DNA from: a virus | Strand: one strand, 5' to 3' | Virus record (IMG/VR): IMGVR_UViG_3300045988_073563 | Length of the DNA stretch: 64,000 nt | In this document: in pieces, positions 1 to 46,035 of the stretch | How the letters are laid out: each line of letters begins with the position of its first letter | Numbering within the stretch: the first letter of the stretch is position 1 | Translations under genes and position numbers: made by a program | Notes under the pieces: generated by a model | The model's database searches: none | What the model saw: the letters and a program-made list of their open reading frames with translations, nothing else | What the model was told of the DNA's origin: nothing

Positions 1-2949
1 TCTGTTGATGCTATCCATGTAGATAAGAAAGGTGTATCTGATGTAGTATTTATCACTTGTGGTATTAAGAAAACACAGGGTGCTAACACAGTAGAGTTAT
101 CTCAATTACCAAATGGTTATGCATTTAAATATGTAATTGATGAAGAGCTTGCTGAGAACTATACTATAGATCAAAACATATCTACTTCTTCAATTAAGAA
201 GAAAATAATATTTATGCTTACTAATGGTGGATAGTTAGTAGATAAAGAAACTATCTATAAGATTAGTGATGGTAAAGACGGAGTAGATGGTGTAGGAGGT
301 TTGGTTACAGACTTTGATAACGACATGATAGCTGTAGCGTGTGACTCTGAAGGTAATGTAGTTAGTGGATTACCTGTAACATCTACAGTAAGTATGTACT
401 ATGGAACTACTAAACTTACATTATATGAGAACCCAACATTGGGTGAAGTAGCGGGAGTAACAGCTACGTCGTCTGTATTAGGTACTATTACTATAACTGC
501 TATTGATAAGTCAGCTCCTGAAGTAATAAGACTACCAGTATCCGTTAAAGCAGTATATCAAGGTAATACTTACATAAGAGACGTCACCTTGACAATTACT
601 AAAGTTAAACCTGGTGCTGATGGTCAAACTCCTAAGATATATCAGTTAGCTCCATCTGTAAGTGCTATCCATGTGAATAAGAATGGTACACCTTCTGTAT
701 CTACTGTATCTTGTGGTATAAGACTGTTTGAAGGAGATTCTACTACTTCAGTAGAAGGTACTCCATATGGTTATTACTTTGCTTATAAGATTGATAATGC
801 TAGTGAAATGAGATACTATGCTAATAATACTATTAATACTAGTGGTATAGTGGCTTATATTACATTCTCGTTATACGACCAAAGGAATAGTAACAGTATA
901 CTTGTAGACCAAGAGACACTATATGTATTGAAAGATGGTGAGGACGGAGAATCTGGATCTGTACCTAACTGGAGTACTTATGTATATAAGAAATCTAATT
1001 CTAGACCTGCTAAACCAACATTTAAGAATCCTAGACCCGGTACTACTGGTATAGACGGGTGGTTAGATTATCCTACTACTTCAGACGGTCAATGGTGGCA
1101 ATGCGTTGGTATGGTAGATGGACCTAAAGATGAAGTACAAACATGGTCTGAAGTTATACAGTTAAATGGTAAAAATGGTGAAGCTTTAGATGGTAAACAT
1201 ACAGAGTTTAGATTTATGTCTATGACTAAAGGTTATGCTCCTAGTATTGCTACTACTGTTAGAAATCCGGCAGGTTGGACTACTACTGTACCAGTAGTTA
1301 ATAGCTACGAATACTTGTGGATGTCACATGCTGAGATAGCTGCTAATGATGAACTGATTGGAGTATGGGATCAACCTGTTAGAATTAGTGGTGAAGATGG
1401 AGCTGCAGGTGAACCGGGTGTTAGTCTATATACTTGGATTAAGTACTCTGATGATCAGCCTACATCTGATTCACAGATATATGATAAACCTAATATGTAC
1501 ACTAAGTATATCGGTTTAGCTTATAATCAAACTAGTTCAGTAGAAAGTACTCGTTATACTGATTATGAATGGGTTAAATGGGTAGGTAATGATGGTGTAA
1601 ATGGTACTAATGGTTTAAGAGGAAGACTTGTATATCCAGCAGGAACTTATATCCATAATAAGACATACGAAGCTACTGATACTCAAGCACCATTTGTATT
1701 ACAAGGTGAAGCATTCTATGTAATGAATAAAACTACTACATGGAATGGTCAAAATCTAGGAGTTACTCCAGAACAAGATTGGAATTCTAATGGAATAAAT
1801 GCTACTTGGATATTGATGGATGACTTTGAAGCAGTATATACTAAGTTACTGATTGCAGACAATGGTACACTTGGAGATTTTGTGTTCAATAAAGAGTACA
1901 TGTTTAGTAAACAAGGTACTGATGCACTTGGACAAGAATCTACTGATTATCAGAACTTTAATAGTACTGTTAAACCATTTTCATTTACAGATACATCTAT
2001 ATGGGCATATAATTTTAAAAGTAGCAGTAGTAATTACAATGGAACTATAACAAGTGATACTATAACTATTACTGGTAAGACATCGTCTTCTTCCGCAACG
2101 GATTATTTAATATGGACTCAAAGTAGTCATAAAGATCTTCCAGAATTTAATATAAATGTGAAAGGCGTTTCTAACAATTCCAACATATATCTATTATATA
2201 ACTATATGACAGAAGGTGGAGTAAGAGAATCTATAAGAATGGATTACGATGGAGTTTATGCTCTACCTAAAAGTTTTATACAAAGTGGTACTCTAAAGTA
2301 TGGTTTATAGTTGGTAGTAAATCTTGCAAGTACCTATTTAAGTGAGAATGTTATAGTTACTTTATTACCTAATAAATTCAATCCAAATTTCTAGGTAAAT
2401 GGGATTACTGGCGAAGTAACAATGAATAAAGCAACAGTAAAGGGAAGATTTAGTACTAATGCTGTAATTCATAAAGTTACTTCATTTACTACTACACATT
2501 CTCTAACTATACCTAATGATTATTCTTTTAAAACTTTATATATAGTTAGATAGAGAGACGATGTAACTGTAACCAATAATACTATAGACCTATACACAGC
2601 TGCTTTTGCAACTCCGGATCCTGAATTCTACCCAGATGAATATTAGGCAGATCAAATGGTATAGGCTTAGCTAAATATAGTAAACTTAACTAGTTATAAT
2701 GTAGATATACACAAAGGACCTAGTAGACTAGATCCAGGTTTTGTATTACCTAATTCGGGCGGTTTTGGAAGTTGTGATACTATTCGACTATACAATGGGG
2801 GTAATGTTACTATAGACTTTATATATTTTAAGAATGAGTTATACGCCATGGGTAGTTAGACTAATGAATTAAGAGTAGTAAAAAATTCTGGAGATTTTGT
2901 GAAGACTACAATAGGAAGTTATACATATGCTGTTAATAAATCATTCTAA
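1..2949 (+). CDS. Tail fibre / receptor-binding protein, 5'-truncated at the window edge (TAG read as sense)
   Basis: Frame 1 is open from nt 1 to TAA 2947-2949 if 8 in-frame TAGs are read through (e.g. 232-234, 2308-2310); there is no TAA or TGA. It contains two copies of a ~95-aa domain (VDAIHVDKKG...KDGVDG and SAIHVNKNG...KDGEDG), as in repeat-built phage fibres. Confidence 0.7.
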
Positions 2950-2951
2950 AA

Positions 2952-3209: not shown

Positions 3210-3245
3210 CGTTAATAAATATTATTAATTTTAAAACTAAATATT

Positions 3246-3828: not shown

Positions 3829-4356
3829 ATGTGGAAAGATATTAAAGATTACGAAGGTTTATATGAAATAAATTCATCTGGACATATTAGGAGAAAAGGC
3901 AGTGCAAAGCTGTTAAAACAAGCTAAAGGAAAAGATTATATGCAAGTTAGTTTATGTAAATGCAATCATAAAGTCACTAAAACAGTTCATAGACTAGTAG
4001 CAGAAACTTTCTTAGAAAACCCTAATGAACTACGTTGTGTTAATCATAAAGATGAAAACAAGTTAAATAATAATGTAGAAAACCTTGAGTGGTGCAGCGC
4101 AAAATACAATACTAGTTATGGTGACTGTATACAGAGAAGAGCAAACTCTCATAGAGGGAAGAAACATAGATATTCAGAACATGTTAAATGTAGAAAAATA
4201 ACCCAACAATTTGACAATAATATGAATTTAATAAAAGAATTTAACAGCTTAACAGAAGCATCCAAAAGTACAGGTATTGCTATACAAAATATTTCAGCTT
4301 CTTGTTTAGGTAAAACAAAAGAATCCGGTGGATTCATATGGAGGTATAAGACATGA
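3829..4356 (+). CDS. HNH-family homing endonuclease (NUMOD4-like N-terminus plus HNH_3-like core)
   Basis: The N-terminus WKDIKDYEGLYEINSSGHIRR, then HRLVAETFLENPNELRCVNHKDENKLNNNVENLEW, is typical of phage HNH homing endonucleases. The gene has no TAG codons. Its TGA stop overlaps the next start (ATGA). Confidence 0.75.
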   Translation: MWKDIKDYEGLYEINSSGHIRRKGSAKLLKQAKGKDYMQVSLCKCNHKVTKTVHRLVAETFLENPNELRCVNHKDENKLNNNVENLEWCSAKYNTSYGDCIQRRANSHRGKKHRYSEHVKCRKITQQFDNNMNLIKEFNSLTEASKSTGIAIQNISASCLGKTKESGGFIWRYKT

Positions 4357-4754
4357 AATATTTTTCTATCGCAGAATTAACAAAATCTACTACAGCTACA
4401 GCTAAGAAATTAGATAATACTCCTACAGAGTAGGCAGAGAAGAATCTAATTACTCTAGTAGAAAAGGTACTTGATCCACTTAGAGAATTGTATGGTAAAC
4501 CTATTATAGTTAATTCAGGTTATCGCAGTCCAGAAGTAAATAAAGCAGTTAAAGGAGCTAAGACAAGTCAACATGTATTAGGAGAAGCTGCTGATATAAC
4601 AGCAGGTAGCAAAGAAGAGAATAAGAAGTTATTTGAGTTAATCAGAGATAACTTTGAGTTTGATCAACTTATTAATGAGAATGACTACTCATGGATACAT
4701 GTATCATATAGAGAAGGAAGACTTAGAAAACAAATATTAAAGCTTGGTAAATAA
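4353..4754 (+). CDS. Peptidase M15-type cell-wall hydrolase (endolysin candidate)
   Basis: ATG 4353 to TAA 4752-4754 with one in-frame TAG (4431-4433). It carries Zn-ligand-like motifs SQHVLGEAADI and WIHVS, as in the Peptidase_M15_3 / VanY-like fold. Confidence 0.7.
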
Positions 4755-4756
4755 AG

Positions 4757-7700
4757 ATGGTAAGATTTGTTAATTTTAGAGCAAGTGATATATAGCCCAA
4801 TCCTGATGAAGTAATGTACTGGGTTGACCTTAATACTGATCCACTTGGTGGTAGTATAAAGGTATGGAATGCAGAAGGATATTGGGAGACTATAAAAGTA
4901 CTTCAAGGAACTCTACCTGAATTTGAAAACAGAATAAAGAAGTGGGTAGAACAACAATTAAAGAACTTTGATGAGCATCTGAATGAAGAGATACGTCAAT
5001 TTGACGGTAGGATTGCTATCATAAGTTAGGATATAGAGACATTAAAACTAACTAAATAGGATAAACTTATTGCTGGTTCAGGCATAGATATTACTGATAA
5101 TGTAGTATCATGTGTACTGGATCTTACTCTGTATAAGATAGTATCAGAATTACCCACTGAAGACATTGATACTACAAAGATATACTTAGTAGTTGATAGT
5201 GAAGGTACTCATGGTAATCTCTATAAAGAGTATATCTATGTAGATGGAGAGTGGGAACTATTGGGTGAATATAAAGCAGATATAGACTTATCCCCATATC
5301 TTACTAAGGTAGAAGCTGCTGATACTTATGCTACTAAACTAGAACTGCAACAAGAAGTAAATCGTGCAACACAAGCAGAGGTTACTGAGAAGAATAGAGC
5401 ATTAGCTGCAGAGGAACAACTGTCTAAAGACATTGATGCAGAAAAGGATAGAGCTCTTATTGCAGAAAGAGATAACTTCAACCGTATTATAAATGAAATT
5501 GCACGTGCAGAAGCTGCAGAAAAAGCTAATGCTAAAGCAATAGAAGATGAGGCAAAGCGTGCTATAGAAATTGAAACAGCTCTTGCTTCAGGAATGGTAG
5601 AAGAACAGAACAGAGCAATTGAAGCGGAAGAACAGTTACAAGGTGAAATATGGGCTGTAGATGCTAAAATGTCTGAACAGGGTGGTTCTTTAACTGATGC
5701 TATAAATTCTAATACACAAGCTATAGCTGATGAAACTGCTAGAGCTACTCAAGCTGAAGATAATAATAGGAATCTTATTAATGCAATGGATACAGCTTAT
5801 AAGGCTGCTGATACTGCAACTAACACTAAATTAGACAATGAGATTACTAGAGCTAAAGCAGCTGAGAAAACAAATGCAGATGCTATAGTAGTAGAAGCGG
5901 ATCGTAATGATGCACAAGATACTTTAATCAGCAATCTGCAATCAAGCAAAGTTTCTACTGTTAACTTAGTATAGGATCCTGATAATGAGTTACATTATAC
6001 ATTGATGGTAGACTCTACTAATGCTGGTGAAATAAGCATACCTAAGGATAGATTCTTAAAGCAAGCTTATTACGATCCACAGAAGAAGAGCCTTATTTTT
6101 ATATTTGTAACTGAGGATGGTGAACAAACTGTACCTGTAGATATTAGCGATCTAGTAGATACATATACTGCCGGTAATGGTTTAAGTCTAGCGAATAATA
6201 AGTTTAGCATTACTATTGATAGTACTTCTGATTCTTACTTAACTGTAGGAGCTAATGGCATCAAATTATCTGGTGTAGCAGCAGCTATTAACAAACTAGA
6301 TACTGATTACAAAGCAGCAGATACTGCAACTCTTAACTCAGCTAAAGCATATACAGATACTAAAGCATCTGATATAACCGATACAGTTACACAACTACAA
6401 TCAGATATAGAAGCTGAAGAAATCAGAGCTACAGATGTAGAGAATAGATTAGCAGGACAAATATTTGCATTAGACGCTGCAAAACAAGAAAGATTAGTTA
6501 GTGGTGAAACTATTAAGACTGTCAATGGCAGTTCATTACTAGGAGCTGGCAACATTGTTATTGAAGGTGGCAGTGGTGGAGGAATTGATGATGCTCCGTC
6601 TGATAGTAAAGAATACGTTAGAAAGAATGCAGCATGGTCAGCATTACCTACTAGATCTGTAACTCCAGTTGCTGATTCGTTAGTATAGAGAGACGGTTCA
6701 GGTAATCTGATAATTAATAAAGGCTCCATTAATTTCAACAATAACATGGAATGGTGGATGCAGGTTAATTCTGATGGTAACTTCATACTTAACAGTACTG
6801 GTAATGCAAATAAGTTCTTATATAAAGATTATGAAGTAGGAAATTTAAACAATTTATATGTACTTAGGGAAACTGTGATAGATGCTGGAACTCTAGACGA
6901 AAATACATACTATCCTGTTACTATACGTATGGATAGTAAGTACAACAATAGAATAGAAGTGCATACCACATTGGGAGTATCTAGAAAGCCAAGTTGGTCA
7001 ACACATGAACAAGGATTTTCGGTTCATTTTGTAGAAGAAGTTTATCCTTTAGCTTGGGGAATAAACAGTACTACACATAGAAGAATATTATCTTTTAATT
7101 ATAATTGGACGAAAGATAAAGCAGTATATCCTATAGGTAGGGTAACATAGATGGAAAACGGTGGGTCAGAGGTAATATATGTTAGAGGTGGAGGAAGATA
7201 TTATTTTTATACTACTAAAAATGCTTTACCAGTATTAAGGACCTCTGATTATACAGATAGTAGTCAAACTGTATCTCCTAAAGCAGCTAGTGATATGACA
7301 GATGCTGACTATGCTACTTTTAAAAGAACTATGGTTGAAACTGCTGATACTTCTTATGAACCTACTGCAAATAGTATAGTAAAAAGGAATGCGGACGGTT
7401 ATATAAAAGCTAGTTATATAAACACAACTGCAAGTAGGTAGAATGGATATGCTGATACAATGAGTGATGTATTCTTCATGTCCAATGAAGATGGTTACAT
7501 TCGTCGTTGTTCCAAAGCAAAGTTCAAAGAACAAATATCAGGTACAGGTTTAGATGCAGATACATTAGATGGTCAATAGGATGATGCTTATTTGAGATAC
7601 AGAAGTACTACAACAACACATGATGATAACACACTGTGGGATAAGATAGGTATTAAAGAATATTCTTCAGCTAATCCAGACCAACTAGATACTCCGTTTA

Positions 7701-9613
7701 ATTATGGAGCAGCTATATCATTACCTGCGGGTTCAAGAAGATTTGACATATGGTATTCTGACAGCTCATCGACTAATTCTACTTAGAGGGGAGTATTCTA
7801 TAGAACTGGTTGGAATGTAACTAAAAATCCATGGGTTAGATTTTTAGATGCCAATGATATGAGTGCTACAAATGTAGCAAGCAAGATTCCAGTTAGAGAC
7901 GCTAACAAACAGATACTAACTAGTGGTTATAAGAAAGAAGGATCTAGTGATTCATATGTGTTGCTTGGTGCTGGTGGTCACGTAATGTTAGCAAAAGGAG
8001 CTACTGGAAATACCATTGTGCAAAGAGACAATGATGGAATAGTATATGGTAAGTACTTCTATACAGAACAAGAAGACGAACCTTCTAGTGCTACTATATC
8101 TTCAGTATATATAAAAACAACAGATAAAATTATAAGAAGAGTATCATTCGCTAACTTTAAATCAGCATTAAACATTCCTTCTGCATACACATTACCAACT
8201 GCATCTAGTACTACTTTAGGAGGTATCAAGGTAGGAGCAGGATTATCTATTAGTAATGGAGTGTTATCTGCTAATGGAGGTGGCACAGCTGATTCAGTAG
8301 CGTGGGCAAATGTAACAGGTAAGCCAACATGGATAGGAACTGCTAAACCAACTTATAGATTAGATGAAATAGCATCATCAACTAACCAAACTGTAGATGC
8401 TAGTACTACACCTGTATCTAGAAAGAAAATAGTCTATGTAGGTAAATCAGGTAATGGTTGGATAAGTGCAGTTGCATTAGGTATACGAAATGTAAATGGA
8501 TCATTTGGTCCAGCTGTATTATCATTGGGTACTAAAGATACACCGTCAGATACAGCAGCTATTGATGATGGATGGGTAGATTATCAATTCTAGACTAGTG
8601 GTAGAATTGCATCTAAGGCAGGTACATTTGCTGTTACTTCTGATATTCCTACTTCATTAAAGAACCCTAATGCTATTAAGTTTACAGGAGCAGTTACTGG
8701 TACTTATGATGGTTCATCTGCTGTTACTTTGAATATCCCAACTATTGCCGGACCAAAAGGTGATACTGGTGAGAAGGGAGAAAAAGGTGATTAGGGTCCG
8801 TAGGGTTTGAAAGGTGACACTGGGGATCAAGGACCTAGAGGATATGCTGGTTCAGATGGAGCTAATGGTAAATCGTTAGAGTTTGTATGGAGTGGTTATA
8901 CTCTTGGTGTAAGACAAGAAGGTACTACATCATATACTTATTCAACTAGTTTACGTGGAGCAACTGGAGCGAAGGGTGATAAAGGAGATAAGGGTGATAC
9001 AGGTCCAGCTGGTACTACAACGTGGTCTGGTATTACTGGAAAACCATCATGGATTGGTAGTAGCAAACCAACGTATACATGGTCGGAAATCACAAGTAAG
9101 CCATCATGGATCGGTTCAAGTAAACCTTCCTATTCATATTCAGAAATATCTGGTACTCCATCTCTTGCTGATGTAGCCACATCTGGATTATATAATGATC
9201 TAAGTAATAAACCAGTTATTGATACTGCTCTATCTTCTACTAGTACAAATGCAGTTCAGAACAAAGTAATATATGAATAGTTAGTAAAGAAGGCTGAGAT
9301 AGTAGGATATTAGGCAGGTTAGAATGGTTACATAAAGTTTGACAATGGTTTATTAATGCAATGGGGGTATAAAACAGCAAGTTCTACTGGTACTAATACT
9401 ATTTATACACCTATAGCTTTTTATAATGCTACTTATTGTCCTATTATTACTTATCGTGAACCAGGGTAGGGCATGAACATTGTTATAGGCTTAGTTACAC
9501 TTGTACAAAATAGTTATTTTACAATAAGAAGTAGATACACAGTGGGAGATTCGAATGGTACTGGCGCGGGAATCAATGATTTTTATTGGGTAGCCGTTGG
9601 TAGATGGAAATAA
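4757..9613 (+). CDS. Very long tail fibre (1618 codons) with coiled-coil, collagen-like and tandem-repeat segments
   Basis: Track ORFs 4814, 5261, 6002, 6746, 7151, 7592, 7859 and 8807 all share one frame. I read every gap and found only TAG (16 in total) until TAA 9611-9613. The N-terminal motif is YWVDLNTDPLGGSIKVWNAEGYWETI. Long Ala/Glu-rich heptad-like stretches follow, then Gly-X-Y runs. Confidence 0.75.
8750..9013 (+). repeat. Collagen-like Gly-X-Y tracts inside the fibre gene
   Basis: The tracts read GPKGDTGEKGEKGD(TAG)GP(TAG)GLKGDTGDQGPRGYAGSDGANGK and GATGAKGDKGDKGDTGPAG. The two TAGs occupy X/Y positions next to a CAA-encoded GDQ triplet. Confidence 0.8.
9032..9145 (+). repeat. Tandem 19-aa repeat ITGKPSWIGSSKPTYTWSE / ITSKPSWIGSSKPSYSYSE
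   Basis: Two adjacent copies at 9032-9145. A diverged third copy (VTGKPTWIGTAKPTYRLDE) lies at about 8312-8368. Confidence 0.8.
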
Positions 9614-11988: not shown

Positions 11989-12027
11989 AAATATAGAATT
12001 TTGTAAAATAATTAGGTTGTTCTCTTG

Positions 12028-12128
12028 CATTTAGGTAGTAACACGACTAACAGCAGTAATGCTAGGTTACTCAATGTGAATTCTAACAATGAGCTTAGTA
12101 ATTCCAATGCTAATGTCAGTACACTGAT
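12028..12128 (+). repeat. DGR template region (TR), non-coding
   Basis: This is the A-rich copy of VR. In the VR frame it reads H L G S N T T N S S N A R L L N V N S N N E L S N S N A N V S T L I. Its AAY and AGY codons cannot mutate to stop codons by A-substitution. Confidence 0.9.
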
Positions 12129-12248
12129 CCCCAAAACAGAAAAAATATTTAAAAAGCACTGTCAGAGAAGACCTTACCTCTTGGTAAAAAACGACATTTT
12201 AAAACACTGTATTAGTAGCGTAAGCGAAAGTTCGGTATGGGATTTCAG

Positions 12249-33600: not shown

Positions 33601-36600
33601 TAAAGTAGGAAGATTTATGACTTCTGATGAGATAAAAGAATATGCAGATGGCTTGAATCAAAAAGTAGCTACTGACAGTTTCGTATATCTGTATGATTAG
33701 GATGGTAAACCTCAAATGTTTATCAGAAGTATGATGGAAAAGCTTTTCCACGAGGTTGGAAGAGAAGTGAACGGATTATATTCTATAGAAAGTAACGAAA
33801 TAGGGCGTGAAGAACAAGATCTTAAAGCTGCTAAGCAATGGTTGATGGATAAACTTGGTCTTGCTGTAGATCAGGTTAGAATATTCAATGGAGTAATGAG
33901 ATCTGCTTCCAATGGTCCTAGAGTGTATGGTGTTACAAGAATGTCTGTTGGTAATGTAGCTAATATATTATTAGGTAAAGGAGCAGGTTTGGGTATATAG
34001 TATCATGAGGCTTGGCATTATATAAATATGCTTGTACATTCTGCTGCTGAAAGATAGATAATATATGAAGATTTCATTAAACATAATCCAGAGTATAAAA
34101 ATAGAACAGTAAATGAGATAGAAGAAGCTATGGCTGAGGATTTCCGTAATTGGGCTATAGTAGAGAATGCTAAATGGTTTCAATTAGGTTATCAAACAAT
34201 AAAAGCTTTTAGAGCTATAAAAGGATTCGTAAAATCATTATTTGGTATATCTAATAATTTGACTACTAATATATATAGAAATATCAATAAAGGTAAGTAC
34301 AAAGAATATTAGATGAATCAATCTTCTGTTGATGAATTTAATAAAGCTTATACAAAAAAAGGAGTGTATTTCTCAATACCGGGAGTAGATCAAGATAGGT
34401 TAAAAGATATGCCCTCTATTATTAATCCGGATGTATTCTATAATGTAGTAGATTCTCTTACCAGTACTTTATTATCTATATTCAACATACGTAAGGCACA
34501 AGATATAGATAATTTAAGCTAGAATTTAGATTATTTACCTTCTATAATTGAAAGTAATATGATGGCAGGTATAACTCCAGAAGAGAATGATCAGCTTATA
34601 GAAGAAGTATTAGATAATTGGGACATATTCAAACAGTCTTTGGTAGAACAATTGAGTTCTCTTAACATAAAAGCTGTAGAAGTTGAAGAAAAATCTGATT
34701 ATGATACTGGAGAAAAGAGACCTGATGAGAAATATGATAGGGTATCTTATGAATTTTCTAAGAAACTTAACATGTCCTTCAATGCTAAACTATTCTTCTA
34801 TTCTATACCTAAAATGGAATATGATAAATCTAGAAAACTAGTACCAGTAACTGATCCTATTTTTGGTCTTAATATGACAGAATCTTTTGATGTTACTTGG
34901 AATAAGATCATGGAGAATTTGTGGGACATTGAAAGATGGGAGGATTTAGAAAGCAGATGTGCTAGATTAGGCAAAGCTGACCCGTTCTTCATATCATTAC
35001 TTAATTATATAAGTGGTGCTAATAAACCTGACGAGAATACATGTACTCAAATTCTCACTACCATTAAGAGTGCAAAAAATGAAATGACTACTGTACAGTT
35101 CTAGGATGCATTTTAGAAAGTAAAAACTAGTGCTGGACTAGAAGAATTTGTAAAAGATATTAAGACTACAGTTAGAGCTAAGTCTGGAGAATGGAGAGTA
35201 ATTGATTCAGCAGTATTCAGATATCAGAATAAGTATCCTAGGCAATGGGGTAGATTATTTTATGTATCTGGAATGATAGATAAAAGCGATGTAAACAATT
35301 TTGTAATAGACTCTGAAAAGTTAAACAACTTAGAGATAAGATTAGAAATAATAGCTGACGAATTGTCTGAAATAGCTCAACCTTTCATAAATAAAAAAAT
35401 GAAAGGGTCTAATAAATTATCAGAAGATCAGATAAGACAAACTACAGTAAAAGCAAAATAGGATTTTGTAGAGATACTTAATAGTATTGGTATTGATGTA
35501 GATACTAAAACTATAGATTATCTGTTATATGGTACTGAAAGTTTAGATAAAAAACTACCTACAATAGAATCATTTGATAAATTATATACCATATTGAGAT
35601 CTACTAAGAAAGGAAGTGCTAGAAACCAAATAATAGGTAATCTAAATAAGTTACAAGAAGGAGAATCTAAAGATTTGAAATTAGACAATCCTTTTCCAGC
35701 TGCAGAAGGTAGTTTCATACAAAAATTAGCTATAGCACACGGTAAATCTCATCCTAATCCTACTGAATTTAGTGTAACTGGACCTAATAACACTACTATT
35801 TATCCTATTACTCAAAATAACTATATGTCAGACAGAGTTAGATGGTTTAATCAAGATGCTTCTGAAGTTGATAAAACACTACTAGCCACTTATAATAAAC
35901 ACTCTTTATTATTAGGGGCACTGAAATAGGGTTCTAAATTAAGCCTCAGTACTCTTATTGCTGTGCGTAATGCTGATAATAGAGACAGTAGAGACTATTT
36001 CTAGATATCACCTACTGAGGACTACATTGCTAAACTTACATTAGCTCATCAGAATAGAATCGTTATGCCAACTATGGCAGATAAAAAAACATGGTATTCT
36101 ATAACTGGAGTTAATCTATTTCATGATTTATTAAGCAGATCTAGAATGACAGAAATACAAACAGAGAATGGTATTCAACAAATGTTTGTAGAAGATGATA
36201 TGTATAGGTATTCTGATAATACTCTACAAGCCATATCGGATTATCTGCTAGATGAATTCAATGCTGTATACGATTACTATATACACAAATCTGAAGTAGA
36301 AGAAAACCCTAATTTACGTATTGATAATTATCATGGTAAAATAAAGAATGGGGTTATGGACAACTCTGGTAATGGTGGTTATTTTAGGTATTTCTCTTCA
36401 CTTAAGATGAGACAACAAGATGGTACATATAAATATGTTCCTTTAAATCAGATGTTGTGGGCTTGGTCTAAATTTGATTATGATAATGGTGGTAATTAGA
36501 TGGAGACAAGATTAAAACAACTCCGAAATACTTTATTTGGAGACAAAGAAGCTCTATTTGATGCGATAAATGCAACATTATAGGATAAAGTCCAAGAGGA

Positions 36601-39600
36601 GATAACATTCCTAGTAGATAAAGGAATAGTAAGAAGAGATGGTACAGAACTTGAAAATGTATTACTACCTACAAATATAGTGAAAGAGTATACAGATAGA
36701 TCTAAAAATCTAACCTCTGGTGATACATCTAGGAATAACAAGTCTGCTGCCGTTTATTCTATTATCGCAAATCATGTAGTAAATGAAATAGTATCTATAA
36801 ATGAAATTGAAAAAGCATTCGTAGGAGATCCTGCTTACTATAAATGGAAGAGAGATAAAAACAAACCATGGATAATAGTAGAAAGATCTGTAGATAAAAT
36901 TAAACGTCTTGGTTCTGTATTGTCTACTGGGGATAATCTTAGAACTTTTTGGGGAGATGGAGATGTAAGAAATAATTCTAAATTTACTGTATTACACATG
37001 AGTGATAATATGGTCAAATCTGTAAAATTCGATGAATACAAAAAGATGTTTACATCTGCTGAAGTAATGAAATATTTACAAAGGAAGAACCCTAACATTA
37101 GTCAGAGGCAACTTATTAATATGGTAAGTAAGGATAGTATTAATAAGACATTAAAAACTATTGACGCTAAATCAAGAAAATCAATTGAAGATTCTGTGGA
37201 AAGACAAATCGCAGCATATGGGGTTAACAACAGAGGAGAAGGTAATATAAATTAGGCGGATGCTGCAGTTTATATTAGACCAGCCTTATATAAGAGAATT
37301 ATCCAAGCTGTAGGAGAATGGTCACCAGAAGTTGAAACGGCTTTTGAGCTTTTAGAAAGTGATAATCAAGAGTGGTTGTCTGATCCAAAACAGTATGCTC
37401 AAGCTTTGGAAACGCTTATTAAACCATTGAAGATGGTGTACTTCGGAAATCACAACTTGACTAAGTTAGGTTTGAATGTTCCAGTATTTGATAAGATGGC
37501 AATATTCCCATTATTTAAAGTAATGGCAAAAGCTGATAACTATCATTTATATCAAAGAATGAACAATGATGAGCTGGGAACCATAGATATGCTTACGTTT
37601 GAATCAGCAGTTAAAGTGGGAGGTAGATAGAAATTTGCTCCATATAAAGATGCAGATAATTCTAGATTTAATATAGAAGATTTAAATAGACCTTCTACAT
37701 CTACAGTAGTTGAAGAAACTAATTTCGAAGGTTTAGATACTGATAATTCTAAGTTACCTACATATATACAAGATCTTAGAAATTTACGTCTGTAGATGAA
37801 CACAGATCCTCATGAAAGCGTAGATAGATCTCTAGGTACGCAGTTTGCCAAAGTAGCCTTAAGTAATTTAATAAAAGATAGACCATATGGTTTAAATAAA
37901 GATGTAGAATACACCGGTAGATAGATTATAGATAATATATTTGGAGCTATAAATAGATTATCTGACATTGGAGCTCAAAAAATATATGATGAATTCTTAG
38001 AAGATGGTAAACCTTCTGAATAGAAACTATCTAAGTTCTTAATATCTCAAGGAAAATCTAGTGGTTTATCAAGAGATGCTTTATCTTCATTTGAAATAGA
38101 CAAAACTACTAGACAAATCAAGGTACCTTTGTCAGCCCAAAGTAATAGAAGATTTGTAGAAAGTAGAATAATATCAAGAGTAGGAAAAACTGCCATTGAT
38201 ATTAATACTCCCGGTGGATCCGCTATCCAACATGCATTCTTTGGATTTAAAGATACTACTGGAGTATAGAAGCAATATCAAGTAGGTAGAGCTTTTAATG
38301 ATGGTAAGCCTTTAAATCCTCTTAATAGCGATGGTAGTATGGATTGCATGTTGAGTACTAATTTCTTTAAACATATAGTTCCTAAGAAATATGCTTCTGA
38401 TTATACTGCTATGAGAGACTGGTTGTTAGATAAGAAGATAATTGGGCAAGATGCTAAACCTTTTGCATTAGGTTATCGTATTCCAACTCAGGGTCTTTCT
38501 TCTACATGTTCATTAAGAGTTACAGATGTGTTACCAGAATCTATGGGGGATGTTATAGTAGTTCCAGATGATTTTACTGCTATGACAGGATCTGACTTTG
38601 ATATTGATAAGCTATATATAGCTACAGGTTATTATGATAAAGATGGAAATTATTTGCAATGTAATTGGGACGATTTATCTAGTAATTCTGAAAAATAGCT
38701 TGTTAATGGTCTGATAGACATGTATAGAGTTGCCATATCAGATGATAGTAACATTGATCAAAGTAGAGCACCTCTGGATAATCTTACAACTAAAGTAAAA
38801 GAAGAAATAGTTCCTTTAGTTATGGGTAAATCTAAAGAGGAATGCAAGCCTATGTATGAACTCCTTCCTTCTTATTAGTTATTTAAGAAATTTGAATATA
38901 CTGGAGGTAAAGATGGTATTGCTCCGTTTGCTCTTGCATCAACCAATCATGCTCTTACTCAAGCTCTAAACTTAAAAATGGATCTTGGATCAGTAGGAGA
39001 TACATATAATTTAGGGAATATAAATGATGTATTGTCACAAGATGGTGAGAGAATATTGGATTGGTTATCTGCAATGATTAACGCCCATGTAGACGTTGCA
39101 AAAGATCCATACATTATTAATCTTAATGTTAATTCTGTTACATATAGTATGACAGAGTTCTTGTTAAGGACTGGAAAAGGTGAAGTAACATTTTATTTCT
39201 TATCCCAACCAATACTTAAGGATTTTGCCAATACGTTGATAAAGCTTAATGGGCAATATGGAGTAGATCCTAGTGATGTTAGTTATTCTGAGCTCATGGA
39301 TGATACTTTATTTGAGTTGAAAAAATAGTATAAAGAAGAAGCGGAAGAATACATAAGTACTCTACCTAAAGAAGAACAGAAGAAGTTGCTAAATATATTG
39401 GATAATTGGGACGATAAAGATAAAGGAGTTGACAAATCATTAGCAGTAGATCCTTTAAAACTTGAAAAATCTTTGAACAGCAATATAAAAGGAGAGAGAA
39501 ATCTTGATTTCTATATTCAACAACTATTAGTAGCAGACGCTTATTCTAAAATGTTGCCATATGCTGAAAGACTAGCAAAACTAGTAAGATTATCTCAGAT

Positions 39601-41365
39601 AGATACTAAAAAATATGGTAATACTCTATCACAACAGGCTAACTATAGCAAATAGGTATTTGACTTTATAAGAAAAGAAGGAGAATAGTTTTATCAGGTA
39701 GATGATAAAGGTTCTGTTATAGAAGGAGATGATGTAAATGCTTTAATGAACTACTATGTTGACAGTTTTCTAATGAAGAAACTTACTAATGCAGTAGATA
39801 TTCCAAGAAACATACTATCAAGTTCGTTCTTACAAGCTACAGATATGTACAGTGGAATGTTCGTAAGTCTTGCAAATGTTATAACAGGAGATAGATCTAA
39901 TATGAACAAACAAGTTGCTACTAAATTAGATTCTATCATAGATAGTATTATAAGATCTAGAATAGCAAATAGTATAGAAGAAATGCATCTTGACGATGGA
40001 GAATATGCTAGAATGGTATTAGGTGATTGGACTGTTCCTAAAAGACTGTTTCAATTTAAAGCAGCTATTAGAAAGAATGATAATGGTAAATATAGTAGCA
40101 TGTTAACAGGAGATGGAACTATTAATAATTCATTCTTAAATTACTTAGTTCCTACTGTAGCTACTGATCTTACAGATACGGATTCAATAACTTTGTTGAA
40201 CAACTCTATGAGTAACAGTGCTAATTTCGAAAATAGACTTATAGCATACTTTAGTGATTTATTACAAAGTGACAATGAAGCTGTTAGAAAGTTCTCAAAG
40301 AGATTGGCTAAATACGCATTCTACACTTCTTACGATAATAAGAGTCCAAATTCCTTTGCTCATTTAATATCTAGTCAATATAGATTAGATACAGGGTATG
40401 CTGATGAAGTGAGAAGAACTATTCATGACATGAATAATGGTAGTTGGTTAAACAACATACTTAGCGATATTGATGAACCTACGTTAAGTAAGTATACTTC
40501 TTTAGCTATGATAATAGCTCGTAACAACGCTCATGATCATGAAATAGTTAAGAATGTAACTAGACCAAAATCAAATTCTGGTAATTCATCTGCATTTATA
40601 TATGAAACAGCTCCTTGGAATGATGAATCTCAATATTTAGTTAGTTTCGCTACTAAGTCAAGGAAAGATGAAAGAGATTTCTTAGCCATTGATTATCCAC
40701 AAGGTAATAGTAGAAATACTGTTTTATATGTTAAAGCTGGTAAAGTAGAAGCATACGATAAGAAGAAAGCTAAGAAATTAGGTCAAGCTACACAAACTAT
40801 ATATGTAGCAATACCAAGATTAGGTAGAACTAAAGGTAGTGTCAACTTAAGTGAATACTTCAAAGATTACAATCAATTATCAGACTTTTCAGAAAACAAT
40901 ATTAATACAATGACTGGCGAATAGATTATAGAGTATTTTGGTGATCATGAAAAGTTTAGATTAGCTGTGAAAGGATCTAATTTTAGCGATGTGGATATTA
41001 CATTCCTACCAAGTCAGTATATAACGGAAGATTTTGTATTTACTAAAGATCCATACAATCAAGAGGTGAACAATAATGAACCTACTCTTGAAAGTAATAC
41101 TCCTAAAACTGTAGCTATGGAAAGCAAGAAAATAGATAAAGAAGTTGCAGCAGAATCTGGTTTACTTAATAGAGATAATTTAATGAATAAAGTACAACAA
41201 CAATTATTAATAACTCAAGCATTGTCGGAAGCTGATATTCAATCAGATCCGTTATCTGGAGTAGAATCATCTGGACTTGATATTACAGGCATGTTTACAA
41301 CAGAAGATGATTTAAGTAAAGATAATTTTTCAGACGAAGCATTTAACATTTGTAAAAGTAAATAA
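27602..41365 (+). CDS. Giant reading frame (4587 codons) containing a crAss-type two-barrel virion RNA polymerase domain and an HExxH motif
   Basis: From ATG 27602, 22 track ORFs (27848...40967) all share one frame. I read every gap and found 46 TAG and no TAA or TGA until TAA 41363-41365. GYRIPTQGLSS...GSDFDIDKLY (DFDID at 38594-38608) resembles the DxDxD metal-binding loop of crAss-like gp66-type RNAPs. YHEAWHY lies at 34001-34021. Confidence 0.7.
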
Positions 41366-41367
41366 TT

Positions 41368-44300
41368 ATGGCAAAAGGAATATGTCCAATTTTGAGTGAC
41401 CCAAAAGTAAAAGCAGAATTTGAAGAATTAGTAGATGCATTGGGTGAAGTATAGGCTTACGCTGTGTGGGATTAGAATGGTGGGTACAGTTTAGATAAGG
41501 CTCCTAATGGGGAGCCTTCTATACTGTTTGAAACATTATTGCAACACAATAATGGTAATAGAGTAAATGCTATATAGGCTAAAGCTAAAGTATACACAAA
41601 TAGTTTTAAAGCTTGGTTTGGAGATTGGGTGAATGATCCTAAAAATTCTTCAAAAGTAGTAGACGAAAATGGCGAACCATTAATAGTATATCATGGAACC
41701 AAATAGGAATTTGAACAATTTTCCCCTGAAGAAACAGCCAGAGCAGATGTTGGTTTTTTCTTTACTTCAGATATACACTATGCTAATCAGTATGGTAAGT
41801 TTATAATACCTGTATATTTATCTATAAAAAATCCTTTTCAGTCACAAGAAGAATTAAATTTTGACACTGTAGAAACAATAATGACTAATGAAGATACTAT
41901 ACGAAATACGGATGGTATAATTGGTCACGATTAGAAATTAGATCTTAATCAGTCACAAGGTGTTGAGTATGTAACTTATACTAACAAATAGATAAAATCT
42001 GTAGATAATAGTGGGTCCTTTAATCCAAATTCTGCAAATATATTTGATAGAGAAACATCTCCGTTACAACAACAAACTATTTATCAAATAGACGAAGCTA
42101 TGTAGAGATTTCGTGCTCAAAGATACGATTTTGACTCTACATTAGATTCTATAAGACAATTAATTACCAATGCTGTATAGGCTCGTATAAAAGCTATCTA
42201 GGGGCGTAATATTTAGAATAAAACTGCTTTATTAGTTCCGTTGGAACAATAGCTGGCGTCTTTAAAAAATCCCAATATTACATCATTACAAACTATAGTA
42301 TTCTGTTTATATGATATAAATAGGACTATGACCGCTCCAGTTAATGCTATATTACAGGCACAGAAGAATCTTAGAGAAGGTAGAGATAGTGGGTTTAGTA
42401 ATCTAGCATTAGTTCAACTCTAGTAGGATTACTTTGGCATGTACAATAATGTGTTAGAAGAAATAGCTAAGAACATATTTGATTCGAATATATATCAAGA
42501 TCTATTAGGTAAAGAGAGCTTTGACTAGTTAAAAACTATGATAAGTAATATGCGTACACAGTTTGCTGCAGCAAAACAAGGTATAACGGAACTTACTACA
42601 GATTTAGCTCAAAAGACATTACTTCAATATGGTATAAAAGATGAACTTAGCAGAACAGAACTTGAAGAATATGTTAGTTCTGAATTAATAACTACTGAAA
42701 ATGACGTAACTACTTTAATGCGTTGGATCTCTGCCGGAGATAAAATGAATGATAAGGCGGCTCGTGTTATATTTGACATGGTAGCAAATGCTAATAATAG
42801 AGTAAGATTCAATACTCATAAATTTGGTAACAGAATGCTACGTCTGTAGTAGAATGTAGCAATTGGTGAATAGATGAAATTATTTGAGTATGATTCCGAT
42901 GGAAAAAAGACAGGATATTTTATTAGAGATAGAAAGTATGGAGAGTTTATGAACAACTTGGAAAATGAAAGAAAAAGATTGAAAACCAAGTATAATGTTC
43001 CGGAAGGTTAGAAGCTACCTTTAGATAAAGAAGCTCGAACTAACTTTAATAAAGAAATGAATGAATGGCTAAGTAATAATTGTGAAAGAAGATACACAAA
43101 GAAGTATTATGACGCTTTTAATTCTTTAAGTCAAGAAGCAAGAGATGCCAGAGATGCTATCCAATTTAAGATATACAAACTCCTTGATGATGTAAGAGAT
43201 AATAAAGGTAGAGTACATATGGAAAATTTGACAGAATCCCAATGGAATCAATACCTAGATTATAATACTTAGAAAAAGCAATTAATGTCTAGATACTATG
43301 AAAATGGTACTCCTAAGACAGATATGGATTTACAAATTGCATAGGAGTTAACGGATCTTAATAAAACTCTTCACGAAGGTATGCATTATGTAACCAATAT
43401 GGAGAAATTTAACGAAGCTAAGGCAGAAGCTAAAAAGAATTTAACTTCAGAAGAGTATGAAAAATGGAAAAAAAGATATACAAGAGAAGAGATAAGTGAG
43501 AAGTTTTATAAGCAATTAGCACAGTTAAATAAAAAAACATACGGAGATGAATATGCCCAATTACAAGAAATGAGAGAAGACCTAACCAAACCTTATAGAA
43601 ATGAATATACTGGAGGTTTGGATGTTAGGAGAATGTCTTCTCAATTATTGGGTACATTAAAATCTATAGACAGATAGATGCGTAAAATCCGTAAAAATAC
43701 TCCAAAAGTTAAAAAGCAACAGTAGGCTGTAGAATTCGAAGATATAGCAGAGGTAATACCGACTGAACAATATAAAATAGATAAAGCTAATGCTCTTAAA
43801 CGCGGAATAGAGTTTTATGAAGCTTGGGAACTTACGCATCATATAGTATATTATGTTGGAGATCAAGAAGTTAGAAGACCAAATTGGTATTATACTAGAG
43901 TAGTTCCAAAAGACAAAACCCTAATAAATACAGAAGCTCCAACAAGAGAATTCAGTGAGATAGATCCAAATTCTGAGTATTTTAATAATGATTTTGATAC
44001 TAACATTGATGAATATTATCAGCCAAAATCGACTATCTATACCAACAAAGAGTACTATAGCCTGTTTAAACCTGTAAAAGATAAAAATGGTGAAGACGTT
44101 GCTACTAAGAATAAAGCTTTATGGGAGTTATATAAAGGATTGTTAGGTGGTATGGAAGAATCTAACGACAAAGTTACTTATCTTACAAGAAACAACCCAT
44201 ACAGACTTCCATAGATGAGTGGTAGCATGTATTAGTATATGAAAAATGATGGTGTTATCAAAGGATTCTTACAATAGACAAAACAAGGTATTGTAAAAGA

Positions 44301-46035
44301 AACTGATGATGTAGGATTTGTTGATGCTCCAACAAGTAGACCAGATGGATCTGAACAAAGATTAATACCAACATATTTTATTGACCCCATTAGGAATGAA
44401 AAAGGAGAACCTGATCCAAATAGAATAACTAATGACCTTGTAGGAGCTGTTATTGCATATTATAAGATGGCTGAAAATTTCAAATAGAAAACAGAGATAC
44501 AACCAGATTTAGAAGTTATTAAAATGCAATTAGCAAATAGAACTTTTACAGGAAAACCTATAGGAGTAGATGCCACTGGTAAAAAAGTATACAAGCAAAG
44601 TAATAGAAAAGAAGGTAAGGATACTAACGTATATAAGTTTGTAAGTAAGTTTATAGACATGCAAGAGTATGGAGAAGAAGTTAAAGCTCATTTACAAAAA
44701 ATAAGTAGTGATAGTAGAATAGGAAAGTTCTTTGGCTTAGCTGGAACTGAAATCAACTGGAGTAAAATAGCATTATCTGTTAAAAATTTCGGTCAATTAA
44801 TAGGTTTAGGATTGAATTTAGCAGTAGGCGCTACTGGTATGGCTACAGCTTTTTTACAGCAGTTAGGATTTGTTGCTAATGGAAGATATTTTGATTTTTC
44901 TTCTTTTTCTAAAGCATATTTCAATATGGTTAGTAACATACTAGGTATAATGCATTATATGCATAGTACTACTACGGATAATAAATACGTAGCTTGTATG
45001 CAACATTTTGAAATAGGTACTGAATTCTAGAACGCTTACCGTAATTCTAACAGAATAGGTATCATAAATACTATTTCTAGAAATTGGGCTTTTGGAATTT
45101 TCTCATTTTCAGATTTCGTGATTAAAGGTACACTATTAAATTCGATTATGAATAACTATAGATACTACAATGGAAAATTCTATAATAAGGAATAGTTCAT
45201 TAATATCATAGGAAATAAAGAAGATGCTAATAATATATGGAAATCACTTCATAGCACATATGATATTATAGAAATAAAAGATGGTAATATTCATATTGAA
45301 AATAAAGCGTATGCAAAAGCATTTGCAGAAGTAGAAAATCAAATAAGTAATGCTGCTAGATCTTTAGCTGCTACTGCAGATGGACAATTAACAGAAGAAC
45401 AAAAAGCACAATTTACTAATAATGCTTTAGGTTCTATAATAATGATGTTTCGTAATTATATACCTAATCTTATTAATGAAAGAGTAACTATGAAAAAATA
45501 GTATGACTATGATTTAGGTATGAAACGAGAAGCATTATATAGAACAGTAGGTAGAGTAATACCTATGCTAATTAGAGATTGGAACAGTAGAAAATCTTTA
45601 GATTCATCTGATATAGGTAATCTCAAACAATTTGGCTTTGAAATGTCTACTATTATGTTATTATCAATGGTAATAAAACCATTATTAATACAAGCGGCAG
45701 ATGATGATAAAGATAGTTGGGTTATAAATTTCTTAGCTTTATTAGTTACTAGAACTGGCTTCGAGTATTCTAATCAATATAATCCTTTAGATTTGCTTAA
45801 TACTTTAACTTCTGTAAGTTCATTAATTAACATAGTTAACCCATTTACAAACATAATGTCTTTGAATGAGATGTATAATATGTTTAATGACAATAAACGT
45901 ATTAAATATGGTCCTTACAAAGGAGATACTAAAGTAGAAAGATGGTTATGGAAAATGACTCCATTTAAAAACATTAAAGAGATTCAAGATCCAGCACTTA
46001 AAAGGAAGTATTACGAATAGTTATACAATAAATAA
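41368..46035 (+). CDS. Large virion/cargo protein (1555 codons) with an N-terminal ART-like segment and C-terminal hydrophobic helices
   Basis: ATG 41368 to TAA 46033-46035, read codon by codon: 30 TAG and no other stops. It contains VVDENGEPLIVYHGTK(TAG)EFEQFS...FFFTS. Hydrophobic segments are IGLGLNLAVGATGMATAFL and TIMLLSMVIKPLLI. Confidence 0.6.

Follow-up and report, generated by a model that had tools for sequence, protein, structure and literature searches.

Late-gene recoding of TAG to glutamine is established in crAss-like phages (NCBI code 15; Yutin et al. 2021, PMC7886860; Borges et al., 10.1101/2021.08.26.457843; Peters et al. 2022, PMC9523058), and the block-wise TAG pattern was described in these three studies and in 10.1101/2022.06.29.495998. 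The window analysed here, a 64-kb stretch of viral DNA taken at its whole length, shares with the published phages the confinement of in-frame TAG to a single uninterrupted unit of structural, lysis and virion-RNA-polymerase genes, the TAG-free replication genes, the Gln signal, the tRNA(CUA) (here seen in relatives), the genome size of ~100 kb and the flip of GC skew at the block boundary. There was no substantive difference; the sequence is new (97–98% identical to an IMG/VR contig) and the behaviour is not. As in the dual-coded blocks of the Mgcod 'soft switch' (10.1101/2022.06.29.495998), one block needs the alternative code and the other is near-identical under both, and the window adds to this only a weakly suggested tendency for a nearby backup TAA or TGA after TAG-terminated early genes. 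The TGA-recoded Jade and the RF2-carrying Lak/Agate phages (10.1101/2021.08.26.457843) follow the same logic, with a suppressor tRNA heading the recoded late genes, whereas here the codon is TAG, not TGA, and neither a release factor nor an aminoacyl-tRNA synthetase was found in a Pfam scan of 20 − strand and 8 + strand window proteins.

Judged from its sequence, the phage is crAss-like (Crassvirales, Suoliviridae) and near the genus Buchavirus, and the window covers about two thirds of its genome. The hallmark virion proteins were present (CrAss_Ring_1, CrAss_Ring_2 and a virion RNA polymerase that matches PDB code 6VR4), and identity to the Buchavirus RefSeq genomes was 80–86% over 47–69% of the replication block and 75–82% over 14–32% of the first 20 kb. 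Buchavirus cr52_1 (NC_055888) and cr56_1 (NC_055890) (Suoliviridae, Loutivirinae) have the same gene order as the window at a nucleotide identity of 75–86%. Their CDS annotations cross in-frame TAG, as in a 1382-aa structural protein with 22 TAG, the annotated 'tRNA-Gln' of cr56_1 has the anticodon CUA by ARAGORN, and no RF1/RF2 or aminoacyl-tRNA synthetase gene is annotated in cr56_1. The window belongs to a different species-level lineage, and its mobile genes differ from those of both genomes (HNH endonuclease at 3829–4356; presence or absence of GIY-YIG). The original prediction had noted that late-gene TAG recoding is known in crAss-like phages, in agreement with the publications and with close RefSeq relatives annotated through TAG; the recoding in the window is real, was correctly interpreted and is already known.

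An exact recount of five + strand frames gave 46 in-frame TAG in 27602–41365, 30 in 41368–46035, 16 in 4757–9613, 10 in 20068–24234 and 8 in 13992–14603, identical to the earlier hand counts, and, as also claimed, no TAA or TGA apart from the terminal TAA. The 27 + strand genes delimited in 1–46035 amounted to 15,187 codons with 172 in-frame TAG (11.3 per 1000). They had been predicted to end in TAA or TGA, often with ATGA or TAATG overlaps, and their stops were 21 TAA, 6 TGA and 0 TAG, with several such junctions. Counted as Gln, TAG represented about a quarter of the Gln codons of the block (26%; block mean 0.26). The main features of the block were the following.

1..46035, + strand: TAG-recoded late block (virion, lysis, virion RNA polymerase), 27 genes, extending past the left end of the window.
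1..2949, + strand: 3' part of a large tail-fibre or receptor-binding-like gene, 8 TAG; the cr52_1 homologue is labelled 'internalin-like protein'.
3829-4356, + strand: HNH endonuclease, zero TAG; a mobile gene that differs from the Buchavirus RefSeq genomes.
4353..4754, + strand: endolysin (Peptidase_M15_3), full-length Pfam match across a TAG at codon 27.
4757..9613, + strand: fibre-like protein, 1618 aa, 16 TAG.
12237..13271, + strand: reverse transcriptase of a diversity-generating retroelement, 2 TAG, one of them covered by RVT_1.
13992..14603, + strand: lysis-regulator or spanin-like membrane protein, 8 TAG in 203 codons.
16628..17194, + strand: 188-aa protein, 8 TAG, which are 8 of 17 Gln codons (47%).
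17328..17984, + strand: tail ring protein 2, 4 TAG; CrAss_Ring_2, E = 1.6e-76, the profile match covering three TAG.
18408..19163, + strand: GIY-YIG/NUMOD homing endonuclease, 6 TAG.
19160..20071, + strand: tail ring protein 1, 4 TAG; CrAss_Ring_1, E = 1.5e-115, full-length match.
20068..24234, + strand: virion structural protein, 1388 aa, 10 TAG.
27602..41365, + strand: giant 4587-aa ORF, 46 TAG, the C-terminal part being the crAss-type virion RNA polymerase.
41368..46035, + strand: 1555-aa protein, 30 TAG, the last gene of the recoded block.

With TAG read as a sense codon, open frames ≥100 codons long covered 95.0% of the window versus 73.9% under code 11, and the longest open frame extended from 692 to 4612 codons. 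TGA and TAA as sense codons were rejected, with coverages of 78.8% and 87.4%, respectively, and no longer longest frame. In this comparison of coding density with code 11, which had been proposed together with the recoding, only TAG as sense restored the long frames. Off-frame TAA and TGA occurred in the + strand genes at ~85 per 1000 codons, and therefore a 4587-codon frame free of both did not arise by chance. The + strand genes with zero TAG (3246–3563, 3829–4356, 10185–10715, 14642–15238 and 17181–17321) were rejected as 'early' genes because ~3–4 such genes are expected by chance, as estimated from gene lengths at 1.13% TAG per codon.

The Pfam profiles CrAss_Ring_1, CrAss_Ring_2 and Peptidase_M15_3 matched the recoded proteins at full length across TAG positions, and TAG was likewise spanned by the GIY-YIG and RVT_1 domain matches. 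If the TAGs were real stops and the + strand frames were pseudogenes, assembly errors or many short genes, the many short ORFs that standard gene callers yield in the + block would be explained; this shredding of the virion block under code 11 had been foreseen. However, the TAG positions and frames were conserved in 40 relatives, single Pfam and PDB homologues covered several TAGs, and thousands of codons lacked TAA and TGA against an off-frame density of 85 per 1000. The homology spans already refute such a reading, and its probability is negligible. These observations support a sense reading of TAG in the late block on the + strand.

The remaining block lies on the − strand and contains the replication genes and three genes terminated by TAG.

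46095..63833, − strand: early/replication block of 21 genes, among them those for DNA polymerase, a DnaB-like helicase, primase, an AAA_24 ATPase and metallophosphoesterases.
53652..53657, − strand: TAG stop (at 53655) of the DnaB-like helicase gene with TAA directly after it (tandem stop).
57910..57915, − strand: TAG stop (at 57913) followed directly by TAA; the homologous stop in relatives is TAG in 6 loci and TAA in 1 locus.
59705..59707, − strand: TAG stop of a 190-aa gene, with the next in-frame TAA or TGA 20 codons downstream.

The statement that the − strand genes are intact in the standard code held, and beyond it the stops were 13 TAA, 5 TGA and 3 TAG. A constitutive code 15 throughout the genome, supplied by the host or by an ever-present suppressor, would leave the − strand proteins almost unchanged (extensions of 1, 1 and 20 codons), and the lack of TAG on this strand would then be a codon-usage bias. 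However, the 21 genes contained no in-frame TAG in 4,776 codons, against an expectation of 54 from the + strand frequency (Fisher p = 6e-21). The homologous early-gene stops in relatives interchanged TAG with TAA and TGA (for example TAA 30, TAG 22 and TGA 5), TAG formed ~11% of the unique early-gene ends in relatives, no + strand gene ended in TAG, and the reported hosts of such phages use the standard code (10.1101/2021.08.26.457843), all of which makes a genome-wide code 15 very improbable. In the early block of 81 related loci, only 11 in-frame TAG were found in 282,605 aligned codons. TAG was avoided internally in the − strand replication block, yet it still served as a terminator.

An immediate backup stop followed 2 of the 3 TAG stops and 4 of the 18 other stops in the window. 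Across relatives, a backup stop was present after 19% of TAG stops versus 9.7% otherwise (one-sided p = 0.015), and the median distance to the next stop was 7 codons after TAG versus 12 (p = 0.003), but these contexts are homologous and dependent, and the tendency of TAG-terminated early genes to have a nearby TAA or TGA is therefore only suggestive.

The amino acid inserted at TAG was assessed by a codon-level comparison of the window with 40 related phage contigs or loci. The codons opposite window TAG were TAG in 46%, CAA in 15% and CAG in 6%, and the sense residues were Gln in 41%, Lys in 10% and Glu in 9%, so the alignment of homologues, which had been named as a check, showed the Gln enrichment expected by the original prediction. 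At TAG positions, ~59% of the relatives' sense residues were not Gln, as expected at variable positions, and the assignment is therefore statistical. Over 1,320 observations, an empirical substitution profile for Gln fitted better than that of any other amino acid, with a margin above 1.1 nat per observation. In the opposite direction, TAG of the relatives stood opposite window Gln at 9.5% and opposite any other residue at no more than 1.05%, a ninefold preference.

Individual positions agreed with this assignment. The TAG at 18582–18584, which had been placed at the conserved Gln of GIY-YIG endonucleases, was aligned opposite the Q of KLQRSFNKHG in I-TevI (PDB codes 1MK0/1LN0). The TGSDFDIDKLY motif of the 27602..41365 product aligned with phi14:2 gp66 (PDB code 6VR4, E = 2e-35), and the alignment ran across TAG positions, two of which lay opposite Q of phi14:2, a standard-code phage. 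The two TAGs noted in collagen triplets were both located at the Y position of the G-X-Y run at 8750–8875, which reads GDq GPq ... GDQ (q = TAG) and adjoins the CAA-encoded GDQ. Decoding as another amino acid, such as Lys, Glu, Tyr, Trp or pyrrolysine, is hardly credible against the fit of the Gln profile, the ninefold pairing with Gln, the Q residues of I-TevI and phi14:2 gp66, and the peptides with Gln at TAG positions reported for two other crAss-like phages (PMC9523058). It could draw on Lys and Glu as the next commonest residues opposite TAG, on acceptor stems of some suppressor tRNAs that are not Gln-like, and on the name 'Pyl' that ARAGORN gives to a CUA tRNA, which is an anticodon convention; no pyrrolysine genes were found among the scanned proteins. 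Taken across the relatives, I-TevI and phi14:2 gp66, the comparative evidence points to glutamine.

The tRNA scan of the 64-kb window found no tRNA and the Rfam scan of the window gave no match. The tRNA scan of the 40 related loci around the ring-protein gene also found none, as the suppressor tRNA gene lies elsewhere in the genome. In cr56_1, tRNA(CUA) was located at 92120–92199, adjoining the terminase gene, and in 20 of 22 relatives, including L105 and L116, it lay 0.1–2 kb upstream of the terminase gene. L105 is a contig 97–98% identical to the window (same species) whose tRNA(CUA) lies shortly before the terminase gene, and we infer from it a suppressor tRNA(CUA) for the exact genome of the window. 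An exact-match scan with the cr56_1 anticodon arm returned 31 viral contigs, from which the same-species contigs were absent because their suppressor scaffold differs. The scaffolds at this fixed spot differed strongly even between close relatives. The G3:C70 pair used by E. coli GlnRS was missing in the suppressor tRNA of the same-species contig, and with such divergent scaffolds Gln charging is therefore not readable from the tRNA. The cr56_1 tRNA has the acceptor stem start UGGGGUA, as typical of bacterial tRNA-Gln (cf. E. coli supE). A single base change turns the Gln anticodon CUG into CUA, and the E. coli supE-type tRNA is charged with Gln. Compared with supE, the tRNA here is phage-encoded and variable in scaffold among relatives, and it serves at least 172 sense positions rather than leaky suppression.

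Read-through by a host-encoded suppressor, or inefficient natural read-through, would require no phage tRNA, which is compatible with the lack of a tRNA within the 64-kb window and with recoded crAss-like genomes without a detectable suppressor (PMC7886860; 10.64898/2026.08.21.746148). The fixed position of tRNA(CUA) beside the terminase gene in the same-species contig, cr56_1 and most relatives argues for a phage-encoded source, and 46 TAG in one ORF would be impassable at low efficiency; read-through without a phage tRNA is very unlikely. In the complete cr56_1 genome, recoding begins at the terminase gene and stops at the strand switch. The terminase and portal genes of L105 contain 8 TAG each, and the small same-strand genes upstream of the recoded operon are nearly TAG-free in relatives. 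As a refinement, the recoded unit is the late operon, whose start lies outside the window at about the suppressor tRNA and the terminase gene.

The published two-phase coding, with TAG-free early genes, late genes carrying TAG as Gln and a switch by the phage tRNA(CUA), is given a probability of about 0.93. The proposal that recoding is module-specific stood in that TAG is sense in the late block and absent inside the replication-block genes; the code itself is not read per module, because the ribosome cannot tell modules apart. A temporal switch through late suppressor tRNA is likely, with early genes kept free of internal TAG and hence compatible with both codes. The early genes (− strand, 46095–63833) would be translatable by the unmodified host machinery, with RF1 stopping at TAG. 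The switch would be the phage tRNA with anticodon CUA, encoded ahead of the terminase gene where the late operon begins. Probably expressed late and presumably charged with Gln by the host glutaminyl-tRNA synthetase, it would decode TAG in competition with RF1. Before it accumulates, late transcripts would yield truncated fragments, which presumably keeps lysis and virion proteins from being made too early. Once the switch has occurred, the TAG-ending early genes would be extended by 1, 1 and 20 codons only.

Within the standard-code early block, an ORF-free element of ~1.8–2.0 kb was observed at about 60950–63000 on the − strand. Its secondary structure was conserved with more than 100 compensatory base-pair changes and strong covariation support, and an invariant 20-mer of the element occurred in more than 119 IMG/VR contigs. 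Seven RefSeq crAss-like genomes carry it with little or no annotation. A hidden ORF was rejected, as no reassignment of a single stop codon opened a consistent frame in 20 relatives. Nothing in Rfam matched at E ≤ 1, promoter and terminator scans gave no informative signal, and literature searches found no description. The element may be new, while the recoding itself is not. If it is real and has not been described before, phages with amber recoding would express from their early block a new class of giant non-coding RNA, two to three times as large as GOLLD, ROOL or OLE; the odds for this are put at somewhat less than even. 'Novel types of RNA molecules' were speculated on for the code switch by Borges et al. 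(10.1101/2021.08.26.457843); a role of this RNA in host takeover or the code switch is conceivable, and a functional link is pure speculation.

Code 11 fragments the virion block; its products, such as the endolysin, the ring proteins and the 4587-aa virion-RNA-polymerase protein, appear whole only when TAG is translated as Gln. Biologically, the phage is one more member of a well-described class, reproducing the restriction to the late block, the suppressor tRNA where the late operon starts (via relatives) and the TAG enrichment in the lysis-regulator or spanin-like gene reported for crAss-like phages (10.1101/2021.08.26.457843); at 13992–14603, TAG formed about half of the Gln codons, among the most TAG-rich genes of the block. 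It makes two small additions, namely that TAG is still a terminator in the early block, interchanging with TAA and TGA across relatives, and that the scaffold of the suppressor tRNA varies strongly between close relatives at a fixed pre-terminase position. The ~2-kb unannotated structured RNA is the item of the window that deserves its own follow-up.

The nearest megablast records were crAss-like phages from human faeces (cr56_1, cr109_1, cr52_1, and cr113_1), with identities of 80–86% across the replication block and 75–82% in parts of the first 20 kb. The closest records belong to Crassvirales, Suoliviridae (the present name of the crAss-like Delta group), Loutivirinae, Buchavirus. The IMG/VR contig UViG_3300045988_040416 (97,637 bp) was 97–98% identical to the window, and the two represent one species. 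Roughly 35 kb of the phage genome lies outside the window, and the host is probably a Prevotella/Segatella or Bacteroides species. Pfam matches in the window comprised crAss tail ring proteins 1 and 2, an M15 endolysin, GIY-YIG and HNH homing endonucleases, and a reverse transcriptase. A single ORF of 4587 aa (27602–41365, + strand) contained 46 TAG codons, and its C-terminal third matched the virion RNA polymerase of phi14:2 (PDB 6VR4; E = 2e-35), in a match that took in the catalytic TGSDFDIDK motif (DFDID at residue 3665); its homologue is labelled 'nuclear pore complex protein-like' in RefSeq relatives. The – strand block encoded a DnaB-like helicase, a primase, an AAA_24 ATPase, and metallophosphoesterases, together with a DNA polymerase as annotated in relatives.

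The original prediction held that TAG is a sense codon, probably for Gln, throughout the virion block (here the late block, 1–46035, + strand) and not in the replication block (here the early block, 46095–63833, – strand). When open frames were called with each stop codon in turn read as sense, TAG gave the highest coverage and the longest frame.

Open frames of at least 100 codons in the window under each code
Code 11 (standard bacterial code): 73.9% of the window; longest frame, 692 codons
TAG as sense: 95.0% of the window; longest frame, 4612 codons
TGA as sense: 78.8% of the window; longest frame, 692 codons
TAA as sense: 87.4% of the window; longest frame, 692 codons

The hand counts of in-frame TAG in the original prediction were exact in all five frames, none of which contained TAA or TGA ahead of the terminal TAA. 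With TAA and TGA as the sole stops, 27 + strand genes were delimited in 1–46035, and these held 172 in-frame TAG in 15,187 codons. The off-frame density of TAA and TGA in these genes was approximately 85 per 1000 codons, and therefore stop-free frames over thousands of codons cannot be due to chance. As had been claimed, the genes terminated in TAA (21) or TGA (6) and never in TAG; several junctions were of the ATGA or TAATG type. TAG accounted for 26% of the late-block Gln codons. The 21 genes of the – strand contained no in-frame TAG in 4,776 codons, whereas the + strand rate predicts 54 (Fisher p = 6e-21). The two blocks converge at ~46035–46095; both GC skew and AT skew reversed sign at exactly this junction, and the maximum of the cumulative GC skew at ~46 kb was consistent with a replication terminus there.

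The – strand genes were intact in the standard code, as predicted, with the refinement that TAG was the stop codon of three of them (at 53655, 57913, and 59705). In two of the three, TAA followed directly (53652–53657 and 57910–57915), and read-through would lengthen the three genes by only 1, 1, and 20 codons. In the replication block of 81 related loci, 282,605 aligned codons included 11 in-frame TAG and 22 in-frame TAA; the former were no more frequent than the latter and were thus regarded as alignment noise. Homologous stop positions varied between TAG, TAA, and TGA (in one example TAA 30, TAG 22, and TGA 5; in another TAA 64, TGA 7, and TAG 4), indicating that TAG acts as a terminator in the early genes. 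The early block is an instance of what Pfennig et al. (10.1101/2022.06.29.495998) call a 'dual-coded block'. Among the unique early-gene ends of relatives (loci L155–L234), an immediate TAA or TGA backup was found after 19% of TAG stops and 9.7% of other stops (one-sided p = 0.015), and the median distance to the next stop was 7 and 12 codons, respectively. As these contexts are homologous and not independent, they only hint that backup stops are favoured behind TAG-ended early genes.

Translation through TAG and the residue inserted there were examined by profile matches and by comparison of codons. The GIY-YIG domain match covered three TAG positions, the CrAss_Ring_1 match was near full-length across all four TAGs of its gene, the CrAss_Ring_2 match crossed three, and the Peptidase_M15_3 and RVT_1 matches crossed one each. 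Two local arguments for Gln were borne out: the TAG at 18582–18584 aligned with the Q of KLQRSFNKHG in I-TevI, and the collagen run at 8750–8875 read GDq GPq ... GDQ (q = TAG). In the RNA polymerase region, moreover, the standard-code phage phi14:2 had Q at two positions aligned with TAG. When the + strand proteins were compared by tblastn with 40 related loci (ring protein 70–97% identical), the codons opposite window TAG were TAG (46%), CAA (15%), and CAG (6%), with the remainder scattered. The 1,320 sense codons at these positions encoded mainly Gln (41%), followed by Lys (10%), Glu (9%), and Ala (7%), an enrichment in the direction proposed, in counts that come from related sequences and are not independent. 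Gln was the commonest sense residue in relatives at 36 of 83 TAG sites; Lys was next, at 10 sites. Against per-amino-acid substitution profiles derived from the same alignments, the TAG columns fitted the Gln profile best (–2.42 nat per observation), followed by Glu (–3.60). In the reverse comparison, relatives carried TAG opposite 9.5% of window Gln codons and at most 1.05% of the codons for any other residue. The direction of these comparative counts is unambiguous and points to decoding of TAG as Gln.

No tRNA and no Rfam match was found in the 64-kb window. The putative suppressor, tRNA(CUA), for which a search of the remaining genome had been proposed, was absent from the window and present in 20 of 22 terminase loci of relatives, where it lay 0.1–2 kb upstream of the terminase gene. 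These included locus L105 (5205–5280), from the same-species contig, and L116 (4922–4996), and the tRNA had this position also in L043, L075, L085, L097, L120, and L131. The complete cr56_1 genome (locus L043) has a single tRNA on the late strand (92120–92199; L043:42120–42199), which is annotated in RefSeq as tRNA-Gln and was given the anticodon CUA by ARAGORN. A homing-endonuclease gene separates it from the terminase gene, which follows just downstream. The in-frame TAGs of cr56_1 started at the terminase gene and extended to the strand switch, with only two TAG in ~12 small same-strand genes upstream of the tRNA; the pattern in L105 was alike. The cr56_1 terminase large subunit (L043:38223–41297; 1024 aa) also carried an intein-like insert (CLDGDT...VHNC) with its own TAG codons, and the L105 terminase ORF was only 685 aa; a TAG-containing insert of this type is likewise described in Delta-group phages by Yutin et al. 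(PMC7886860).

The suppressor tRNAs of relatives were 73–91 nt in length and often adjoined a tRNA-Met(CAU). Their acceptor stems started with UGGGGUA in cr56_1 and L120, like bacterial tRNA-Gln, with UGCCCUC in L105, with UCCCCUA in L075, and elsewhere with CGGCGUA. The kept position and varied scaffold in close relatives suggest repeated replacement or fast evolution. Because the scaffolds differ so strongly, the TAG amino acid cannot be read from the tRNA, and the assignment to Gln therefore rests on the comparative data and published peptides. No release factor or aminoacyl-tRNA synthetase was found in the Pfam scan of 20 – strand and 8 + strand proteins.

The published two-phase account was the best supported, with its timing, charging enzyme, and the way in which RF1 is outcompeted being presumed. 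The early genes would be translated first by the unmodified host machinery; the phage tRNA(CUA) would then build up, presumably charged by host GlnRS, and its accumulation would allow translation of the late genes. CUA-anticodon tRNAs of this kind are charged with Gln in E. coli, which is also mentioned by Borges et al. (10.1101/2021.08.26.457843). The densest TAG was found in a lysis-regulator or spanin-like gene (13992–14603; 8 in 203 codons) and in 16628–17194 (8 in 188 codons). These agree with the report that a spanin and adjacent genes are preferentially recoded in ~105 kb crAss-like phages (10.1101/2021.08.26.457843).

Mobile elements were also located in the late block. The GIY-YIG/NUMOD homing endonuclease (18408–19163, + strand) was missing in the same-species contig, whose locus L002 joins window 18414 to 19159, and is thus a presence/absence polymorphism. 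This gene held six in-frame TAG and, to judge from its codons, is a mobile gene adapted to the late code. The HNH/NUMOD4 homing endonuclease (3829–4356, + strand), just ahead of the endolysin, had no TAG in 175 codons, which is within chance expectation and could reflect recent arrival. A further element was the following.

10720–13271, + strand, diversity-generating retroelement: VR ~11869–11965, TR ~12025–12120, RT 12237–13271

The VR was the 3' end of a tail-protein gene (10720–11988) and matched the TR upstream of the reverse transcriptase, with nearly all mismatches at template adenines.

Inside the early block, an ORF-free stretch of ~1.8–2.0 kb (~60950–63000, – strand) was flanked by genes at 63005–63430 and 60280–60927. 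All six frames were closed under the standard code and any single stop reassignment, and no consistent ORF was found across 20 diverse relatives. The element had a G+C content of 0.37–0.38 compared with ~0.31 nearby, and was conserved along its full length (74–82% identity) in 62 related loci. In seven RefSeq crAss-like genomes the corresponding stretch was without annotation or contained just the edge of a flanking gene. The invariant 20-mer GGAGCAGRAGCCAATYCTGT occurred in more than 119 IMG/VR contigs. The element was also present, at 70–82% identity, in four contigs assigned to bacterial MAG bins: L239 and L243 (rabbit-gut 'Bacilli' bins, ~98.7–98.9 kb), L240 ('Sphaerochaeta' bin, 100.1 kb), and L241. 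They are probably mis-binned phage genomes, because three of the four have the crAss genome size (~100 kb). The 2-kb region was 99.6% identical to contig 074447 (L163) and ~97% to contig 040416, and the structural block matched contig 040416 best, which suggests a mosaic genome and recombination among co-circulating strains.

The RNAalifold consensus of a 20-sequence alignment contained 250 pairs, with 97.9% of cells paired and compensatory double changes at 100 pairs, compared with 34–42% and 13–21 when the partners were slid by 1–3 columns. As this structure was fitted to the alignment on which it was scored, it was also predicted from nine sequences and scored on 11 held-out sequences. In the held-out set 83% of cells were paired (37–41% in slid controls), with double changes at 121 pairs (19–35 in slid controls). 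In this set G-U pairs (507) exceeded A-C mismatches (183), supporting the – strand as the RNA strand. No Rfam match to the element was obtained even at E ≤ 1, and the literature searched contained no account of it.

That late-gene TAG recoding is known in crAss-like phages, as the original prediction stated, is confirmed by Borges et al., who described one recoded structural and lysis unit and proposed a role in lysis timing (10.1101/2021.08.26.457843), and by Peters et al. (PMC9523058), in whose study Gln was seen at TAG in peptides of two crAss-like phages, and no such peptides came from early proteins. RefSeq coding sequences of cr52_1 already cross TAG (for example, a 1382-aa protein with 22 TAG). 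Since these descriptions and annotations match, the recoding in the window is real, correctly read, and already known, and its practical value lies in the annotation of the window. The ~2-kb element, whose extensive secondary structure has strong support from covariation, is a strong candidate for a structured phage RNA that is both new and very large.
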